Part shown: positions 1,993 to 14,281 of the stretch, in pieces
How the letters are laid out: every line of letters starts with the position of its first letter
Position numbering within the stretch: the stretch's first letter is position 1
Assembly (NCBI GenBank): GCA_964510585.1
Contig: CAZECW010000025.1
Coordinates: 1-32,000, forward strand
DNA from: an uncultured archaeon
Lineage (GTDB): Archaea; Asgardarchaeota; Jordiarchaeia; Jordiarchaeales; Jordiarchaeaceae
Length of the DNA stretch: 32,000 bases
Direction of reading: 5' to 3'
Translations under genes and position numbers: made by a program
Notes under the pieces: generated by a model
What the model saw: only the letters and a program-made list of their open reading frames with translations
What the model was told of the DNA's origin: nothing
Databases searched by the model: none

Positions 1993-2400
1993 CTAAAAGT
2001 AGAAGTGAATATTGAGGGGGTACTCTACACATTTTAGAGTTTTTTTCTCAAGCTCTTTTAGAAGCAGATAGGTTTCAGGGTAGGTGTTTAGATGTTCAAT
2101 TTCATCTATCTTGAACCATTTATACTCCCTGGTGCCTTCGGTTAACTTTTTCACTATTTTGGCTTTAAATACAAAAAATAGGTGATAGTCTTCCTCCTTC
2201 TTTAATTCGTAAACTCTTGCCAAACTTTCAATCTCTATTAGGTACCCCGTTTCCTCTTTTATTTCTCTCTCCGCAGCTTCTATCACTCTTTCACCCTTCT
2301 CCACCTTCCCGCCAGGAATCGCCCATACTTCGTTATCGTTCACCAGAAGTGTCCTGCCCCTATCGTCCCTGATAATCACAGTAGCTACCACCACAACCAT
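1993..2400 (-). CDS. Nudix hydrolase
   Basis: Complete Nudix box GGKVEKGERVIEAAEREIKEETGY. ATG at 2400 chosen; track start is TTG at 2409. Confidence 0.88.
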   Translation of the reverse strand: MVVVVATVIIRDDRGRTLLVNDNEVWAIPGGKVEKGERVIEAAEREIKEETGYLIEIESLARVYELKKEEDYHLFFVFKAKIVKKLTEGTREYKWFKIDEIEHLNTYPETYLLLKELEKKTLKCVEYPLNIHFYF

Positions 2401-2502
2401 TATTAACAACCCTTTTAACGTCTTTATCTCTACTCTACTTCCACGTCTTATTAGGTTAATCTTTTATTTCCCTTTTCCTATTATTTTTTCAAACTTGGAA
2501 TT

Positions 2503-3459
2503 TTGGTGAGGTCACCCTTGCAGTATGACGTGATAATAGTAGGAGCGGGGCCGGCTGGGCTCTCAGCCGCCGCTTTTGCCGCAAGGCGAAAACTAAAAAC
2601 TCTGGTCTTGGAGGCAACCAGTAAAGTTGGTGGAAAACCAGTAAACGTATATGGAACCAAAATAGTGGATGACTTTATAGGTTTCCCAGATGGGGTAAAA
2701 GGAAAAGAGGTAGGAGAAGCCTTGCTCAGACAAGCACAAAAATTTGGAGCAGAAATCAAATGCGAATCAAGGGTTTCCAAGGTCTCGATAGAAAACAATG
2801 ATAAACTGGTAAGCACAGACGATGGGAAAACCTACAGAGCCAAAGCGGTAATAATCGCCACCGGCTCACACTCCAAAAGTTTCGTGGGCGGCATCGAAGG
2901 CGAGGCAGAGTTCAAAAACAAGGGTGTAAGCTACGAACTTCAAAACCCTAACGAAATGAAGGATAAAATAGTATTTGTTGTGGGCGGAGGAGAAACAGCT
3001 GTAGAAACCGCTATTACCTTAAAGGACATAGCGAAACAGGTTTACCTTGTACACAGACGCGACTCCTTTAGAGCGGATGAAATACTGGTGGAACAATTGA
3101 AAAAAAGCAAAATAAACATATTGACTAATTCTAGATTGCAAAAAATCCACGGAGACGACAAAGTAACAGGAGTAACCATATACAACGATGCAACTAAGAA
3201 AGAAATAGAAATGAAGGCTGACCAAGTCATATTTTGCTTCGGGACAGTACCGGCAAGTGAGATGCTAAAAGATCTAAATGTGAAACTCGACGAAAAAGGC
3301 TTAATAATGGTCGACTGCGACCAAAAGACCAATATAGAGGGAATTTTCGCCGCAGGAGACGTAGCAGGCGGAGCTATGAGAATATCGACTGCCATAGGAG
3401 AGGGAGTAAAAGCTGCCCTCAACGCCTACAAATACATAAAACAACCCTACTGGGCCTAG
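2503..3459 (+). CDS. Thioredoxin-reductase-fold FAD/NADPH oxidoreductase lacking the redox CxxC; possible TrxR-type ferredoxin-NADP+ reductase
   Basis: GAGPAG FAD motif, GGGETA and HRR NADPH motifs, GIFAAGDV; the CxxC position reads SYELQN. Start may be TTG 2518, after SD-like GGTGAGG. Confidence 0.8.
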   Translation: MVRSPLQYDVIIVGAGPAGLSAAAFAARRKLKTLVLEATSKVGGKPVNVYGTKIVDDFIGFPDGVKGKEVGEALLRQAQKFGAEIKCESRVSKVSIENNDKLVSTDDGKTYRAKAVIIATGSHSKSFVGGIEGEAEFKNKGVSYELQNPNEMKDKIVFVVGGGETAVETAITLKDIAKQVYLVHRRDSFRADEILVEQLKKSKINILTNSRLQKIHGDDKVTGVTIYNDATKKEIEMKADQVIFCFGTVPASEMLKDLNVKLDEKGLIMVDCDQKTNIEGIFAAGDVAGGAMRISTAIGEGVKAALNAYKYIKQPYWA

Positions 3460-3648: not shown

Positions 3649-4593
3649 TCATTTGGATGTACCGTACCAGCCGCCTCTAATGTAAAGGTAGGCGTTTACC
3701 GCCGCCGTGGCTCCCTCACCAACAGCAGTAGCAATCTGGAAAACGCCTCCAGTAACATCTCCCGCCGCAAAAATTCCTTCAATATTCGTTCTCTGTTCCC
3801 TGTCTACTACTATGTACCCACCCTCATCCAGTTTGACTCCTGCCTCCTTAGCTAAATCACTAACTGGCCTGTAGCCTACCGCTATGAAAACTGCATCCAC
3901 ATCCAATAAACTCTCCTCCCCCGTTTTGTTATTAGTGAGTCGAATTTTTTTCACCACCTTATCTCCCTCAATACTCCTTACTTCAGTATTCCAGTGAAAC
4001 TTAACTCCCTTCTCCGTCAAAGCCCTCTTGTAGTAAGCTTCAGCCCTCAAATCATCCCTCCTGTGAACTAAATGTACTTCCCCGGCAACATCACTCAAAT
4101 ATAGAGCCTCAGAACAAGCTGTATTGCCACCACCAACCACAAGCACCCTTTTACCCTTAAACAAGGGTCCATCACAAGTTGCACAATAGCTAACTCCTCT
4201 ACCACTAAACTGTTCTTCTCCTGGCACCCCAAGCTTCACATGCTCACGCCCCGTAGCAATTATAACCGCATCGGCCACATATGTCTCTCTGTCCGATATA
4301 ACCCTAACATGCTTTTCTCTCTTCTCTATTTTCCTGACTGGCTCTAAATCATGAATGTCGCATCCGCACCCCTCAGCTTGCTTTCTCATAGCATCCATTA
4401 ACTCCATTCCCCTAATTTTAACAAAACCAGGATAATTCTCAATAATAGCTGCCTCCGCGGCCTGTCCACCACTAACCTTAGCCTCTAAAATCACCGCATT
4501 TAAACCAAACCTAGCCGCATAAATTCCAGCGCTCAATCCCGCAGGCCCAGCGCCAATAATCACCAACTGCTTCTCAACTGGCAAAATAAACAC
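3649..4593 (-). CDS. trxB: Thioredoxin-disulfide reductase
   Basis: GAGPAG, IENYPGF, GRGVSYCATCDG (CxxC intact), GGGNTA, HRR, GIFAAGDV, QIATAVGEG. Confidence 0.92.
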   Translation of the reverse strand: MFILPVEKQLVIIGAGPAGLSAGIYAARFGLNAVILEAKVSGGQAAEAAIIENYPGFVKIRGMELMDAMRKQAEGCGCDIHDLEPVRKIEKREKHVRVISDRETYVADAVIIATGREHVKLGVPGEEQFSGRGVSYCATCDGPLFKGKRVLVVGGGNTACSEALYLSDVAGEVHLVHRRDDLRAEAYYKRALTEKGVKFHWNTEVRSIEGDKVVKKIRLTNNKTGEESLLDVDAVFIAVGYRPVSDLAKEAGVKLDEGGYIVVDREQRTNIEGIFAAGDVTGGVFQIATAVGEGATAAVNAYLYIRGGWYGTSK

Positions 4594-4839: not shown

Positions 4840-6573
4840 GTGGATATGGTACCCAAGCATGAAGAATATGCGTTCAAAGTTGTTTGCATTGGGGATGGTG
4901 GTGTAGGCAAGACCAGCCTAATAGTAAGGCTAACCGAGAATAGGTTCTCAGAAGACTACAAAATGACTTTAGGAACTTCTTTTGCCGCTCACACCATAAA
5001 TATTGAGGATAAAATTGTGACTTTACAGATTTGGGATCTTGGAGGTCAGCCCTCCTTCAGTCACTTGAGGTCGTTTTTCTATGCTGGAGCTAAGGGGGCT
5101 GTGATTGTTTTTGACTTAACAGATATTAAATCTTTTAAGAATGTTACAACATGGTATAAAGAGTTGCGTAGCGTTTGCGGTGATGTGCCGATTGTTTTGA
5201 TCGGTAATAAGAATGATTTGGCTGGCAGCCGTGTTGTTGCTAGGCAGGAGGCGGAGATGCTTGCTAGAAGCTTGGGCGCACCTTACATTGAGACTAGTGC
5301 TAAAACTGGTGACAAGGTTAATTTGGCTTTTCAAAGTGTTTCAAGGCGCTTGTTGGGTATCGAAGAAAAGTTACCTATGGTAAAGGGTGTGGTGGTTCCA
5401 GATGTTAAGAGTAAGATTCTGCAGTTTATTGACAGTCGAAGGGACTATCTCCTAAATTTGCTTGGAGATCTAATTTCCGCTCGCTCTGTTAATCCTCCAG
5501 GAAATGAGAAGGTCGCCGCGGATGTTGTTCAAGGCGAGTTGTTTAGGATTGGAATGCAAACTGAATCTTACGAGAAGGAGAGTGGGCGGACCAACGTTGT
5601 GGGCTATGTGGAGAAGGGTAACTCTCCCACTTTAATGATTATTACACATCTGGATGTGGTGCCTGCAGGCGACGGATGGATTTATGATCCGTTTAAAGCT
5701 ACTCCCACTAATGGTAGGATTGTGGGTAGGGGTGTTGTTGATGATAAGGGGCCTATGGCCTCTGTTCTTCTGGCTATTCAAGCGCTTAAGGAGTTTAATT
5801 TTCCCATTCGGGGACGCTTGTTGTTTGTGGCCGTGGCAGATGAGGAAACTGGAAATGAGCTGGGCATAAAGTATCTTTTGAACGAAAAGGGCTTAACCGC
5901 TGATTATGCTTTGGTGGCTGAGCAAACTAAGTGTGAAGCGGTGGAGATTGCGGAAAAGGGCCGTTTGTGGGCAAGGCTGAAGAGTACTGGTGCACAAGGT
6001 CACGGTAGTATGCCGGTGAAGGGTGCGAATGCAATTGTAAATCTCTCAAAAGTTTTGGCCCGCATAGAAAACCTGAAAATGTCCTACACTGAGCATCCTC
6101 TGCTTGGAGCTCCAACCATAAATGTAGGAACAATAAAGGGCGGAGTGGCTATTAATGTGATTCCTGCTTCCGCCGAGGCCACAGTGGATATTAGATATCT
6201 ACCCTCTCAGGATTTGAGGCAGATAATTAACGAGTTGCGCGAATTAGTGAGGAGCGTCCAGAGGGAGAACCCTGGGCTAGAGGTGGCCATTGAGCCCATA
6301 GCTTCGGATCCCCCGACGGAAGTATCTCCGGAAGATCCCGTTGTCAGAGCAATGGTGAGTGTAATAAGGGAAGTGACGGGAAGCCAGCCTAAGCTAATTG
6401 GGATAGGGGGCGCTACAGTGGCGAAGCACTGTATTTCTCACGGTATTCCCACAGCTGTTTTTGGACCAGGGGATCCTAAAGAGGCCCACGCCGCAAACGA
6501 GAGTGTGTCCATAGATAGTTTACTTAAGGCAGCTAAAATTTATGCTCTGACCATATTAAACCTGCTCTCTTAA
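4840..6573 (+). CDS. Fusion of an N-terminal Rab-like small GTPase and a C-terminal M20 (ArgE/DapE-like) metallohydrolase
   Basis: aa ~11-173: GDGGVGKTS, WDLGGQ, GNKND, ETSAK. aa ~190-577: THLDVVP, GRGVVDDKG, ADEETG, VAEQT, GHGS, EAHAANE. No stop between domains. Likely start ATG 4846. Confidence 0.88.
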   Translation: MDMVPKHEEYAFKVVCIGDGGVGKTSLIVRLTENRFSEDYKMTLGTSFAAHTINIEDKIVTLQIWDLGGQPSFSHLRSFFYAGAKGAVIVFDLTDIKSFKNVTTWYKELRSVCGDVPIVLIGNKNDLAGSRVVARQEAEMLARSLGAPYIETSAKTGDKVNLAFQSVSRRLLGIEEKLPMVKGVVVPDVKSKILQFIDSRRDYLLNLLGDLISARSVNPPGNEKVAADVVQGELFRIGMQTESYEKESGRTNVVGYVEKGNSPTLMIITHLDVVPAGDGWIYDPFKATPTNGRIVGRGVVDDKGPMASVLLAIQALKEFNFPIRGRLLFVAVADEETGNELGIKYLLNEKGLTADYALVAEQTKCEAVEIAEKGRLWARLKSTGAQGHGSMPVKGANAIVNLSKVLARIENLKMSYTEHPLLGAPTINVGTIKGGVAINVIPASAEATVDIRYLPSQDLRQIINELRELVRSVQRENPGLEVAIEPIASDPPTEVSPEDPVVRAMVSVIREVTGSQPKLIGIGGATVAKHCISHGIPTAVFGPGDPKEAHAANESVSIDSLLKAAKIYALTILNLLS

Positions 6574-6584
6574 AATTTTAAGGT

Positions 6585-7028
6585 GTGGTTAAAGCTTTGG
6601 TTGAGTCAGAGAAATTTATTCGTTTTAGTGTTTCCCTCCCAGAAGACCTACTTAAAGAATTTGACAAGGTTACAGAGTCTCTTGGAATACAAGGTAGGTC
6701 TGACGCGATACGCAAAGCTATGCGTGACTTCATAGTAAACTATACTTGGATGCACAAGGGTAAGGGTGATATGGTGGGCTCAATAACCATAATCTTGGAC
6801 CACGAGACCACTGGAATAATGGATGAAATCACCGAGCTGCAGCACAGATATTTAAAATTGATAGCCTCCTCCATGCATGTACATTTGGATGAACGTGAAT
6901 GTATGATTGTTCTTGCAGTAAGGGGAAAAGTGGAGGATATCGAAAAACTCAACAATGAAATACTTGCCCTCAAGGGAGTTAAACTGGTAAAGTACACCAT
7001 TATGACCCCAGGAACCGAATTACCATAA
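6585..7028 (+). CDS. nikR: Nickel-responsive transcriptional regulator NikR
   Basis: Ribbon-helix-helix RFSVSLPEDLLKEFD...RSDAIRKAMR; Ni-ligand pattern QH...MHVHLDERECM. Confidence 0.9.
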   Translation: MVKALVESEKFIRFSVSLPEDLLKEFDKVTESLGIQGRSDAIRKAMRDFIVNYTWMHKGKGDMVGSITIILDHETTGIMDEITELQHRYLKLIASSMHVHLDERECMIVLAVRGKVEDIEKLNNEILALKGVKLVKYTIMTPGTELP

Positions 7029-7205
7029 ATTAAAATATGGAAGGGAACACCACTTTCCAAAATGTTTTTATACACCTGCTATTCAAGTGGGTACACCATA
7101 ATCACCTCCAAAAAAGGGATTTTGGAATAAATACTCGCTACCAACAAAGCCTACGTTTTTTCCAGCATAGTAGTCTGCTAGGCCTCCCCTACTAAAGAGG
7201 TGGAA

Positions 7206-8762
7206 ATGTTGCACTTGGAGTTGGATGGTTATTTCGAGTTGAGCGGTGTTCTTCCTAAGGAAGCCCAAAGAGAATTAGAAGCCTTCTTCGAGGAAGCCAA
7301 CAAAAAACTACTTAAAAAAGGAGCGCCCAAAGGAAAAGAATCTGAAGGGGCACAAGTAACCAATTGGGCTCTCAAGGGGAATAAGATAGAACTGCAGATA
7401 ATTAGCGGCAGATACGTTAGGGCGCACACCGCACTACTCAGACTTTCCAACGTATTATCCAACATTCTAGGATCAAAATATCACACTGGTATCCGAAAAT
7501 CTGTCGCCACCAAGTACAGAATTGAAACCCAACTTGAAAAAGCACCCCTAGAACCAGTAACCCTACCCTTCACCAAAGAATTAGAAATCAAGGATAAAAC
7601 TGCCACCATAACTATGGTGGAAATGGATGAGAGTGAACTCAAAAGAAACTATCCAGACCGCCTATTGCGGCGTCTCGAAGAGAAAATCACGGCCCAGTAT
7701 GTTCATGGAAAAGCGGAATACACACGCACCGTTGAAAGAAGCAACAAGGGCTTGGGAAAATACAAGTTGAGAGAAGACCCCACAGAGGCCGCGGTTAAAT
7801 TGGGATGGGTTAAAGAGTTCCCGGGAGCGGGCATATGGCAGATACTGCCCCCGTATGCTGCACTTATCAGAGCCATAGAAAACATAATCATCGACGACAT
7901 AGCAAAACCCCTAGGCTTCCAAGAAGTCATGCTTCCCCGACTAATTCCACTAGAAGTTGAGATGAAAAAAGGACACTTCGGAATAGCAAATGAGATAATA
8001 TGGGCCTGTCCTCCAATATCCCGAGACCCCAAGGAATTCGAGGAAATACTAGACTACGTGGAAATAACTGGCACTCCCCCCGTAGAATTACTCCAGAAAA
8101 AACTCCGCCCCCCAATGTTTGGACTAGCATACGCTCAATGTGAACCCTTCTACGAACTATTCGCCCAAGAAATAGTAGACGTAGAAGAACTTGAGAAAAA
8201 CCCCATAAAATTCTACGACAAAAATGGGCCCACCTGGAGGTGGGAAGGGGGAGGACTAAAAGGCCTAGAACGCCTAAACGAATTCCACAGAATAGAATTC
8301 GTATACATGGCGCCACCCCAAAAATGCATAGAAATAAGAGACCAAGTACTTGAAAAAGCAAAAACCATGATAGACAAAGATTTGGACTTAGAATACCGAA
8401 TAGACGCAACCACCGCCGTATACCTTGAACACGCGGGAATCGCCGAAGAACAGAAAGAGGAAGAATTCGTGAAAACCTACGACCTCACCGTAATACTCCC
8501 ATTCGAAACCAAAAGCAGACCCGAAGCCGAACTAGAAGTCTCCAGCTTCCACGTACACACCGACTTTTATGCCAAAAGATTCCACTTCCGAGACAAAACC
8601 CGCAAAACAGTATACACCGGATGCGTAGGAATGGGTCCATCCCGCTACGCATACGTAACACTAATACGGCACGGATTCAACTATGACGACTGGCCTCAAA
8701 AAATCAAAAAATACATTGGCGAAAAACTACCCGAAGTCCCCAAAACAGTAACCTGGCCATAA
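7206..8762 (+). CDS. serS: Seryl-tRNA synthetase, methanogen-type (rare form)
   Basis: N-domain FEEANKKLLKKGAP and SGRYVRAH, EDPT..AVKLGW, CPPISRDP, YAQCEPF, EFHRIEFV and YTGCVGMG match the methanogen-type pattern. SD GAGGTG precedes ATG 7206. Confidence 0.88.
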   Translation: MLHLELDGYFELSGVLPKEAQRELEAFFEEANKKLLKKGAPKGKESEGAQVTNWALKGNKIELQIISGRYVRAHTALLRLSNVLSNILGSKYHTGIRKSVATKYRIETQLEKAPLEPVTLPFTKELEIKDKTATITMVEMDESELKRNYPDRLLRRLEEKITAQYVHGKAEYTRTVERSNKGLGKYKLREDPTEAAVKLGWVKEFPGAGIWQILPPYAALIRAIENIIIDDIAKPLGFQEVMLPRLIPLEVEMKKGHFGIANEIIWACPPISRDPKEFEEILDYVEITGTPPVELLQKKLRPPMFGLAYAQCEPFYELFAQEIVDVEELEKNPIKFYDKNGPTWRWEGGGLKGLERLNEFHRIEFVYMAPPQKCIEIRDQVLEKAKTMIDKDLDLEYRIDATTAVYLEHAGIAEEQKEEEFVKTYDLTVILPFETKSRPEAELEVSSFHVHTDFYAKRFHFRDKTRKTVYTGCVGMGPSRYAYVTLIRHGFNYDDWPQKIKKYIGEKLPEVPKTVTWP

Positions 8763-12803: not shown

Positions 12804-12994
12804 GAAGCAATTTGACTCCTTCATAGTCGGTAACTCGGTCATTCAAAATTGGATGTTGTAGGGGTCCCACTTTAGTGGTGAGTGAATTTTTTGGGTCTAG
12901 ATGATTTCGAGCCTCAGCCATAACTATTTATGGGTTGTGGAGCAAGTTGTATTAGTATCTCGTACCTGTTGGTAATTTGTTTTGGGGTGGTTTT

Positions 12995-14281
12995 GTGAAG
13001 GCTAGGGTTGTTGTTGAGGATGTTTCGGAAATTAGAGAGTCTTTGCTCCGGGTTTTTGATGCTTTTGGTGGTGTTGAGGAGTTTGTTAAGCCTGATTCTA
13101 AGGTTTTCATAAAGTATAATGGTGTCCACTTTGGTAGGGTGATGTATACTGATCCTAGGGTTATAGGTGAGATGGTTAGTATTGCTAGGGAATTTACTGT
13201 GGATAAGGTTTATGTGATGGAGAATTCTACTCAGGGCAATTTTACTCGTATGGTCGCTGAGGTTAGTGGTATTGCTCAAATTGTTGAGGAGAGGGGGGGT
13301 GAGAATCTGTACTTGGATGAGCAGAAGCCGGTTATGGTGGAGATGGGTGATGAGCGTATTCCTACTAAGTTTCCTGAGATTTTGTATGATAACCTTATTC
13401 GCAGGAAGGGTAGCAATGTTCTGATTAATATTCCCAAGCTTAAGACGCATTGGGAGACTACTGTTACGCTGGGCATTAAGTGTTTTCAGGGGCTTCTTTA
13501 TGATTGCGATAAGCTTGTGAATCATAATTATAAGTTGCATCAGAAGCTTGTGGATACTGTAAAGTTTATTCGTCCGGATTTTACGATTATTGAGGGTATT
13601 ACTGCCACCCGGTTTGGCCATTTTCCCCCCGAGACTTTGCTTTCGGAGTGTGTGGTTCCATTGAATATTTTTATTGCTTCGAATGATGTGGTTGCATGTG
13701 ATACAGTGGGTGCGAAAATTCTGGGTTATGATGTTGAAGAGGTGAAACATATTAAGCTTGCCGCGGAGCAGGGACTAGGGATCGGTGACCTTAAAGATAT
13801 TGAAATTATCGGTGACATTTCGCGTTTCAGAGAGCGTTTCCCATATACCCCCTGTAGGGACTGCCCCAGTGAGGTGCGCTTTATTAGGGGGAGGGAGATG
13901 GCCTGTGTGGAGGGCTGCTATGGAAACACATTATTGGCTCTCCTCTATTTCTGGTACGATTTTAAAGGTGAGGGCGGCTTTAACATTATTGCAGGTAAGG
14001 GTGTTAGTGAGGACGAACTGGACAACCTTCTGCCCGGGGACATTTTAATCGTTGGGCCTTGCACAATTGAAGAGAACTTGGACAGGATTCGTGAAAAGTA
14101 TCCTGAACGCAAAATTTATACTATACCTGAATGTAACGATATTGCCAAAATTACTGCGTATCTGTGTGCCATGATGAAAATTGATGTTCTTAGCATGATT
14201 CCAATGGACACGAATAAAACGCTCGAAATAATACAACAGGCCCTGCAACATGGATTAGACGCAAATCTTCCCCTCCTCTAA
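12995..14281 (+). CDS. DUF362-domain protein with Cys-containing C-terminal extension
   Basis: FDAFGGVEEFVKPDSKVFIKYN, TDPRV, INIPKLKTH, VTLGIK, DVVACDTVG; extension contains CVEGC and GPC. GTG 12995 follows SD-like GGGGTG (track start 12977). Confidence 0.78.
   Translation: MKARVVVEDVSEIRESLLRVFDAFGGVEEFVKPDSKVFIKYNGVHFGRVMYTDPRVIGEMVSIAREFTVDKVYVMENSTQGNFTRMVAEVSGIAQIVEERGGENLYLDEQKPVMVEMGDERIPTKFPEILYDNLIRRKGSNVLINIPKLKTHWETTVTLGIKCFQGLLYDCDKLVNHNYKLHQKLVDTVKFIRPDFTIIEGITATRFGHFPPETLLSECVVPLNIFIASNDVVACDTVGAKILGYDVEEVKHIKLAAEQGLGIGDLKDIEIIGDISRFRERFPYTPCRDCPSEVRFIRGREMACVEGCYGNTLLALLYFWYDFKGEGGFNIIAGKGVSEDELDNLLPGDILIVGPCTIEENLDRIREKYPERKIYTIPECNDIAKITAYLCAMMKIDVLSMIPMDTNKTLEIIQQALQHGLDANLPLL

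Follow-up and report, generated by a model that had tools for sequence, protein, structure and literature searches.

What does a protein do in which a Rab-like small GTPase and a complete M20 metallohydrolase are made as one chain, and which half serves the other? The question is raised by a gene at positions 4846 to 6573 of the forward strand in the DNA analyzed here (the window), a stretch of 32,000 nucleotides (contig CAZECW010000025.1) from an uncultured Asgard archaeon of the Jordarchaeales. It was concluded that the fusion is one genuine gene. In related lineages the switch of the GTPase domain (G domain) stays intact while the hydrolase decays, and for this reason the enzyme body probably serves the switch. 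We favor, with about even confidence, a small-GTPase switch that uses its M20 body as a dimerizing or ligand-binding platform. As judged from its sequence, the copy in the window most likely still works as a deacylase or peptidase, joined to a GTP switch.

The frame 4840-6573 (+) is open for 577 codons from a GTG, and residue numbers follow this 577-amino-acid (aa) numbering (GTG 4840 start) throughout. The ATG at 4846 is the conserved start; all relatives begin at the corresponding Met. The features of the gene are listed below. The catalytic positions of the M20 part were assigned by alignment to the solved structures of E. coli ArgE (7RSF) and E. faecium DapE (7UOI), and the codons were checked in the DNA.

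4846..6573 (+), whole fusion gene; 575 aa from ATG 4846 (577 aa if GTG 4840 is used), TAA stop at 6571-6573
4864..5355 (+), Rab-like small-GTPase (G) domain, residues 9-172
4891..4917 (+), G1 (P-loop) GDGGVGKTS, residues 18-26; kept in 11/11 Jordarchaeales genomes, as GDGNVGKTS in one
4966..4968 (+), switch I threonine T43; invariant across the fused family
5032..5082 (+), G3 and switch II WDLGGQPSFSHLRSFFY, residues 65-81, catalytic Gln70 included; nearly invariant in both Jordarchaeales families
5206..5217 (+), G4 NKND, residues 123-126; motif read plus family alignment
5296..5304 (+), G5 SAK, residues 153-155; motif read plus family alignment
5356..5397 (+), inter-domain linker of ~14 residues (~173-186); holds the non-conserved Met180 (ATG 5377)
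5398..6570 (+), ArgE/DapE-type M20 metallohydrolase, catalytic domain with inserted lid, residues 187-577
5647..5649 (+), H270, metal ligand in the HLD motif; alignment to ArgE and DapE, codon read
5740..5742 (+), D301, bridging metal ligand in GRGVVDDKG; alignment to ArgE and DapE, codon read
5842..5847 (+), E335 (general base) and E336 (metal ligand) in the ADEE motif; alignment to ArgE and DapE, codons read
5920..5922 (+), E361, metal ligand in VAEQT; Gly instead throughout the sister family, E or D in 47/47 unfused homologs
5944..6276 (+), lid (dimerization) domain, residues 369-479, with H388 (codon 6001-6003); Pfam M20_dimer
6487..6489 (+), H550, metal ligand in HAANE; alignment to ArgE and DapE, codon read

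Pfam finds Ras (PF00071) at residues 13-171 (E 1.6e-51), Peptidase_M20 (PF01546) at residues 267-573 (E 7.5e-35) and M20_dimer (PF07687) at residues 370-476 (E 3.3e-25). In the AlphaFold2 model the M20 part has a block-mean predicted local distance difference test score (pLDDT) of ~86-98; the pLDDT of the G domain is lower than that of the M20 part, and its switch regions are poorly predicted. Residues 176-185 of the linker fall below a pLDDT of 50, and the region 173-200 is 30% identical between the two Jordarchaeales families. A complex prediction of the G domain (residues 1-176) with the M20 part (186-577), GTP and Mg gave a score of 0.00, which speaks neither for nor against binding. An earlier note on this DNA, written from the letters alone, had described an in-frame fusion with no stop codon and no CAAX or CC tail, and so it is: the 577 codons are open and the protein ends in ...LNLLS with no C-terminal Cys prenylation motif (CC, CXC or CAAX). 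Its estimate of a ~15-aa linker agrees with the ~14 residues (173-186) found here. Its suggestion that Met180 could be the ancestral or an internal start finds no support in relatives, which hold L, V or I at this position; Met180 is thus not a conserved internal start.

The fused copy is single and uninterrupted in 11/11 Jordarchaeales genomes (six of the window's family and five of a sister family, at 49-98% identity), and the fused frame has no internal stops in any of them. No unfused ortholog turned up in these genomes in a search with the fusion as query and three candidates per genome. The gene is therefore not a read-through of two genes. The earlier note had called for an architecture check across Asgard genomes, and this is what the check gave; two separate genes were not seen among the relatives searched in this way. 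A missed stop, a frameshift or a chimeric assembly joining two genes would be the trivial explanation of the locus. It has next to no chance in our judgment, given the same open frame in 11 genomes of such varied identity, the exact 575-aa product on record on seven contigs from four public sources (NCBI, JGI, Logan and ENA), and junction DNA without a long homopolymer run. The ratio of nonsynonymous to synonymous substitution rates (dN/dS) is mostly 0.02-0.2, and both halves are under strong purifying selection.

How far does the architecture reach? Public protein data hold 15 fused clusters, and the named ones are all labeled Jordarchaeia, Jordarchaeales, Jordarchaeaceae, Freyarchaeota or Freyrarchaeum. 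Labels of the Jordarchaeia and Freyarchaeota type are synonyms (bioRxiv 10.1101/2024.02.28.582541), and those on the cluster mates bear out the Asgard host that the earlier note had supposed. When 1.84 billion cluster representatives were searched exhaustively with a profile, the top 150 contained only two fused ones, the Jordarchaeales form and a protein designated P0227, which belongs to the Odinarchaeia-type forms described below. The ten further multi-stretch matches of that search that were checked are tandem Ras or Ras-only multi-domain proteins, not Ras plus M20. A first genome search covered 400 Asgard genomes, and in it, as in a second one, three candidates were scored per genome; the Odinarchaeia-type copies escaped the first search and the Jordarchaeales copies the second. 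Each search thus missed known copies, so the absence of the fusion from other Asgard lineages rests mainly on the exhaustive protein searches. Together, the protein is held fused without a split form in 18/18 genomes of two classes.

Besides its single fused copy, the window's genome encodes seven further paralogs of the ArgE/DapE subfamily and about twenty additional Ras-like genes. Among unfused M20 proteins, the nearest (~50% identity) belong to Bathyarchaeia and other lineages; the neighbors of these relatives (Bathyarchaeia and metagenome loci) are inconsistent and give no clue to a substrate. No PADLOC family matches the window protein or the two Odinarchaeia-type forms. The earlier note did not recognize the architecture from any characterized protein. 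This holds: sequence and fold searches found no solved structure chain with both Ras-like and M20 domains, and a literature search found no paper describing a Ras plus M20 architecture. The component families are known and multi-domain small GTPases are already a known kind of protein. Public annotations name one half only, so that records miss either the GTPase ('ArgE/DapE family deacylase') or the M20 remnant ('Rab family GTPase').

Is the G domain a complete switch? All the hallmarks of the Ras superfamily are present (PF00071, G1, the switch I Thr, G3 DxxGQ, G4 NKxD and G5 SAK), and the G boxes and RabF-like words listed in the earlier note were all confirmed. WDLGGQ lies at residues 65-70, and the Rab-like words TLQIW (61-65), FYAGA (80-84) and IVFDLT (89-94) resemble RabF2, RabF4 and RabF5, respectively. 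The switch II segment PSFSHLRSFF departs from RabF3. The fusion reads GGQPSF(S/A)HLRSFFY here, whereas other Asgard Rab-like proteins usually have GQERF...YYRGA. The closest solved relative of the G domain is a Thorarchaeota Rab (7EZB, 3.1e-41), followed by the eukaryotic Rab1, Rab21, Rab2 and Rab11 (~1e-37 or weaker). G1 to G5 and the catalytic Gln are shared with Asgard Rab-like GTPases and eukaryotic Rabs, and the RabF-like words resemble theirs; unlike them, the fusion's G domain is never stand-alone, is followed by M20 and lacks a Cys prenylation motif. We consider the GTPase of the fusion apparently competent.

Is the M20 half a complete enzyme? The protein belongs to the ArgE/DapE deacylase subfamily (NCBIfam TIGR01910, 291.5 bits against a cut-off of 217.6; 293.2 bits in the genome search), which makes it one of eight such paralogs in its genome. 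The di-metal site is complete (H270, D301, E336, E361 and H550, plus the general base E335), and the lid His H388, in an HGS motif, is conserved in the window's family. The full ArgE/DapE-like enzyme with H, D, EE, E and H that the earlier note had read from the letters was thereby borne out by Pfam, TIGR01910 and the alignment to 7RSF and 7UOI. By Foldseek the model matches DapE 7UOI and H. influenzae DapE 5VO3 at target-normalized template modeling (TM) scores of 0.85-0.88; the M20 part superposes on the closed, product-bound 5VO3 at 0.88. Metal ligands, general base, lid His and fold are therefore those of known ArgE/DapE deacylases (7UOI, 5VO3 and 7RSF). The fusion differs from them in its N-terminal GTPase domain and in falling below every NCBIfam equivalog cut-off for DapE, ArgE, LysK and PepV (TIGR01246, 146.5 bits against 361.8; NF009557, 170 against 284; TIGR01892, 190.8 against 297.7; NF001747, 115.2 against 288; NF005591, 164.9 against 435). 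With all equivalog cut-offs missed, no specific substrate can be assigned to the M20 part. ArgE, DapE and CPG2 are lid-mediated homodimers. In DapE, the closing lid covers the substrate, and a lid His donated by the other subunit completes the active site. The hydrolase of the window's genus is apparently competent and probably still an active enzyme.

The two halves fare differently across the four lineages of fused proteins (two Jordarchaeales families and two Odinarchaeia-type families). The G motifs are intact in all four. The seven tracked active-site residues (H270, D301, E335, E336, E361, H388 and H550) are all kept in the window's family. The sister Jordarchaeales family has Gly in place of E361 (5/5 genomes and 6/6 clusters), the substrate loop GIGGATVAK (520-529) is rewritten, and there are extra losses in single genomes (E335G in one and H388Y in another). 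Its M20 dN is ~2x the dN of its G domain, the opposite of the window's family, and the M20 tree gives it a stem of 0.61 substitutions per site, compared with 0.22 in the window's family.

The Odinarchaeia-type class comprises seven genomes of 1.3-2.0 Mb, and 7/7 have a tail of ~390 residues behind the G domain. In family 1 (P0227 and relatives, found in metagenome-assembled genomes labeled Hodarchaeota or Promethearchaeota) the G domain is intact, the linker is ~45 residues longer, and the M20 part has lost six of the seven tracked residues (D301C, E335G, E336L, E361S, H388E and H550N). In family 2 (four of the seven genomes, protein labeled 'Rab family GTPase [Candidatus Odinarchaeota archaeon]') Pfam detects no M20 in the tail. 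A full-length alignment shows the family 2 tail colinear with M20 from end to end; it matches the M20 part of the family 1 protein P0227 by BLASTP (3e-6) and the M20 profile by hhalign (3.9e-4 over 194 columns), and its predicted secondary-structure elements are ordered as in the window's M20. As a negative control for hhalign, the tail of a Lokiarchaeia-type Ras-zinc-ribbon protein gave E 0.3 over 21 columns against the M20 profile. Weak support comes from an Odinarchaeia-type model with a mean pLDDT of 56, in which the first non-Rab fold match is an M20 enzyme (1XMB) at a poor TM score. Members such as MEM2108977.1 (557-563 aa, 'Rab family GTPase') and MFX0096261.1 (612 aa, 'M20/M25/M40 family metallo-hydrolase') thus share the colinear architecture and the G motifs with the window's protein; they differ in the loss of M20 catalytic residues (six of seven, or all) and, in one family, in the longer linker. 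The series runs from an intact enzyme to one lost ligand, a dead site and an unrecognizable remnant with the switch always intact, as in an enzyme becoming a pseudo-enzyme signaling module.

In the G-domain tree the fused forms cluster with three paralogs of the window's genome (support 90/90), and one origin of all fused G domains is possible. Jordarchaeia and Odinarchaeia are both thermophilic and have been found together in hot-spring samples (Eme et al., 2023; PMC10307638), so that transfer between the lineages is also possible.

Other multi-domain Ras-like proteins came up in the searches. The Lokiarchaeia-type Ras-zinc-ribbon proteins were rejected as members of the fused family: Pfam finds no M20 in them, the BLASTP similarity ends after the G domain, and hhalign gave the E of 0.3 quoted above. 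They form a large Asgard family of 540-660 aa, annotated as 'GTP-binding proteins' (P0134, P0207 and ~90 similar proteins), with a Rab-like G domain resembling that of the fusion, ~350 residues without a convincing Pfam match and a C-terminal zinc ribbon. The family is found in Lokiarchaeia, Hermodarchaeia, Thorarchaeia, Odinarchaeia and Hodarchaeales and is unrelated to M20; no characterization of it was found. The window's own genome encodes a protein (locus L005, 598-1767 (+), contig C17) in which N-terminal HEAT/Armadillo repeats are joined to a Ras-like domain sharing 51% identity with the G domain of the fusion.

Which half, then, is in charge? In the reading we favor, the function common to the whole family would be that of the GTPase. 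The M20 body would be a built-in platform that pairs two G domains through its lid, by analogy with M20 homodimers, and it may also be a ligand-binding sensor that opens or closes in step with the nucleotide state. In the window's genus the M20 part would still hydrolyze an N-acyl-amino acid or a small peptide, and binding or turnover of such a compound would thereby be coupled to small-GTPase signaling. Several results weigh against this reading. In the window's family the M20 part is more constrained than the G domain (dN/dS ~0.04-0.06 against ~0.05-0.13), and the enzyme could therefore be the main function here. When the two Jordarchaeales families are compared, no part is less conserved than the lid (39.5% identity, whereas the G domain has 63%), a poor fit with the lid as the key element. 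The whole-chain predicted TM score (pTM) of the AlphaFold2 model is 0.68, and together with the low-confidence linker this means that no fixed orientation of the G domain and the M20 part is predicted. The tree of G domains goes as far as not rejecting a single clade of all fused forms (approximately unbiased test, p = 0.28). Dimerization would be carried over to the fusion from the M20 family by analogy, and the gene neighborhoods examined reveal no pathway.

The tighter constraint on the M20 part also bears on a rival explanation, in which the protein is primarily a hydrolase and the G domain controls it allosterically, switching the active site open or shut with its nucleotide state. The window's family has the full set of catalytic residues, the model resembles closed DapE, and the short linker holds the G domain near the catalytic domain. 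Against this stand the monomer model, which predicts no fixed interface, and the sister lineages, which retain an intact G domain after the active site has been damaged or destroyed. Since the G domain is intact where the active site is dead, control of hydrolysis cannot be the function shared by the family. We hold this explanation unlikely overall, and it fits the window's genus, where the constraint on M20 and the complete set of catalytic residues make the copy most likely a working enzyme. The earlier note had offered two functional readings: a Rab switch dimerized by the M20 lid, which, taken as a switch carried or dimerized by the M20 body, is the one favored at the family level, and a GTP-switched amidohydrolase, which does not stand as the family's function given the G domains that are intact where M20 residues are lost.

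The two activities might instead be independent, joined in a 'Rosetta-stone' manner for equal amounts or a shared location, for example if the GTPase anchored the hydrolase at a partner or a membrane. The low-confidence and poorly conserved linker, its added length in Odinarchaeia-type family 1, and the commonness of multi-domain Ras proteins in the window's genome and in Asgard archaea (the HEAT-Ras fusion and the Ras-zinc-ribbon proteins) are all compatible with such an uncoupled fusion. It is, however, hard to explain why catalytically dead M20 bodies are retained under purifying selection if the halves are uncoupled, and no split form turned up in the searches of the 18 genomes of two classes; we rate the idea as rather improbable. 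Far less probable still is a role of the G domain as a built-in, GTP-dependent loader or exchanger of the M20 metals. This was suggested by the gene for the nickel-responsive regulator NikR, which starts 11 nt past the fusion stop in the window's genus. GTPases that load metallocentres are known, but they are of the G3E family, and the G domain here is Ras/Rab-like; no Cys- or His-rich metal-binding motif was seen in the fusion protein, NikR is not a neighbor in the sister family, and the G domain persists where the metal site is gone. A redox idea was also considered: every Jordarchaeales fused form has C113 and C531, and thioredoxin reductase is a conserved neighbor. It was set aside, as C531 replaces Leu or Phe of the unfused homologs, which suggests a buried position.

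The switch-plus-platform reading can be carried one step further. The protein may be a nutrient- or metabolite-sensing small GTPase in which the M20 part (a pseudo-enzyme in Odinarchaeia) would be a built-in ligand sensor and dimerizer, with binding of an N-acyl-amino acid or peptide, then lid closure, setting the Rab-like nucleotide state. This extension is doubtful. If true, the fusion would be a one-polypeptide counterpart of the eukaryotic sensor-plus-Rag logic and the first Asgard small GTPase to reveal its input in its own sequence. Of the dozens of Rab/Ras-like GTPases encoded by Asgard genomes, hardly any has known inputs or effectors. In the fusion a partner domain lies in the same polypeptide, so that function can be tested with one recombinant protein.

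The fusion can be compared with other multi-domain GTPase systems. Roco proteins (Roc-COR, e.g., LRRK2 and bacterial Roco), as far as is generally known of them, follow the same logic, a Ras-like G domain joined to a dimerization device and an enzyme or pseudo-enzyme. The fusion differs in that it has no COR (no match), leucine-rich repeat or kinase domain, and its G domain is N-terminal and followed by M20; its Pfam 'Roc' match reflects generic Ras-like similarity only. The likeness to Rag/Gtr GTPases and pseudo-enzyme sensors (SAMTOR) is an analogy drawn from general knowledge, i.e., a G domain with a C-terminal dimerization domain on one side and enzyme-fold nutrient sensors on the other. 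Gtr1_RagA (PF04670) scores 18.4, below the cut-off of 22, and the fusion has neither a roadblock nor a longin domain. Ligand sensing of the SAMTOR type by the fusion is hypothetical.

The genes next to the fusion are as follows.

1993-2409 (-), NUDIX hydrolase; far below every NCBIfam cut-off
2503-3459 (+), thioredoxin-reductase-like gene; TIGR01292 277 bits, below the cut-off of 343
3649-4593 (-), thioredoxin reductase; TIGR01292 366 bits, passes the cut-off of 343
6585..7028 (+), NikR nickel-responsive regulator; Pfam NikR_C and RHH_1, NCBIfam NF002169 162 bits against a cut-off of 111

NikR, a neighbor in the window's genus only, is probably co-transcribed with the fusion. The NUDIX gene and the two thioredoxin-reductase-like genes adjoin the fusion in both Jordarchaeales families, and in the sister family the NUDIX gene is the next gene upstream, read in the same direction and separated from the fusion by 47-95 nt. 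The two thioredoxin-reductase-like paralogs of the window are ~40% identical and placed tail to tail. Downstream, a 520-aa seryl-tRNA-synthetase-like gene (7200-8762, +) is of the rare 'methanogen type', with a PF18490 tRNA_bind_4 N-terminal domain and a class II core; it is conserved beside the fusion in the window's genus. The region 1-4 kb downstream of the fusion in the sister family holds a separate Rab-like GTPase with 46-47% identity to the fused G domain (L030, 5051-5623 (-); L027, 7336-7830 (-)), and genes for a thiolase, a ChsH2-like protein and a ribose-5-phosphate isomerase are found in between.

Farther along the window, open reading frames of 278 aa (12914-13750, -; without a Pfam match) and 434 aa (12977-14281, +) overlap almost completely on opposite strands. 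A MeaB-type G3E GTPase gene (716-1690, -; Pfam E 5.9e-91) is located 3 kb upstream of the fusion. It is unrelated to the Ras-like domain, and its position is judged to be coincidental.

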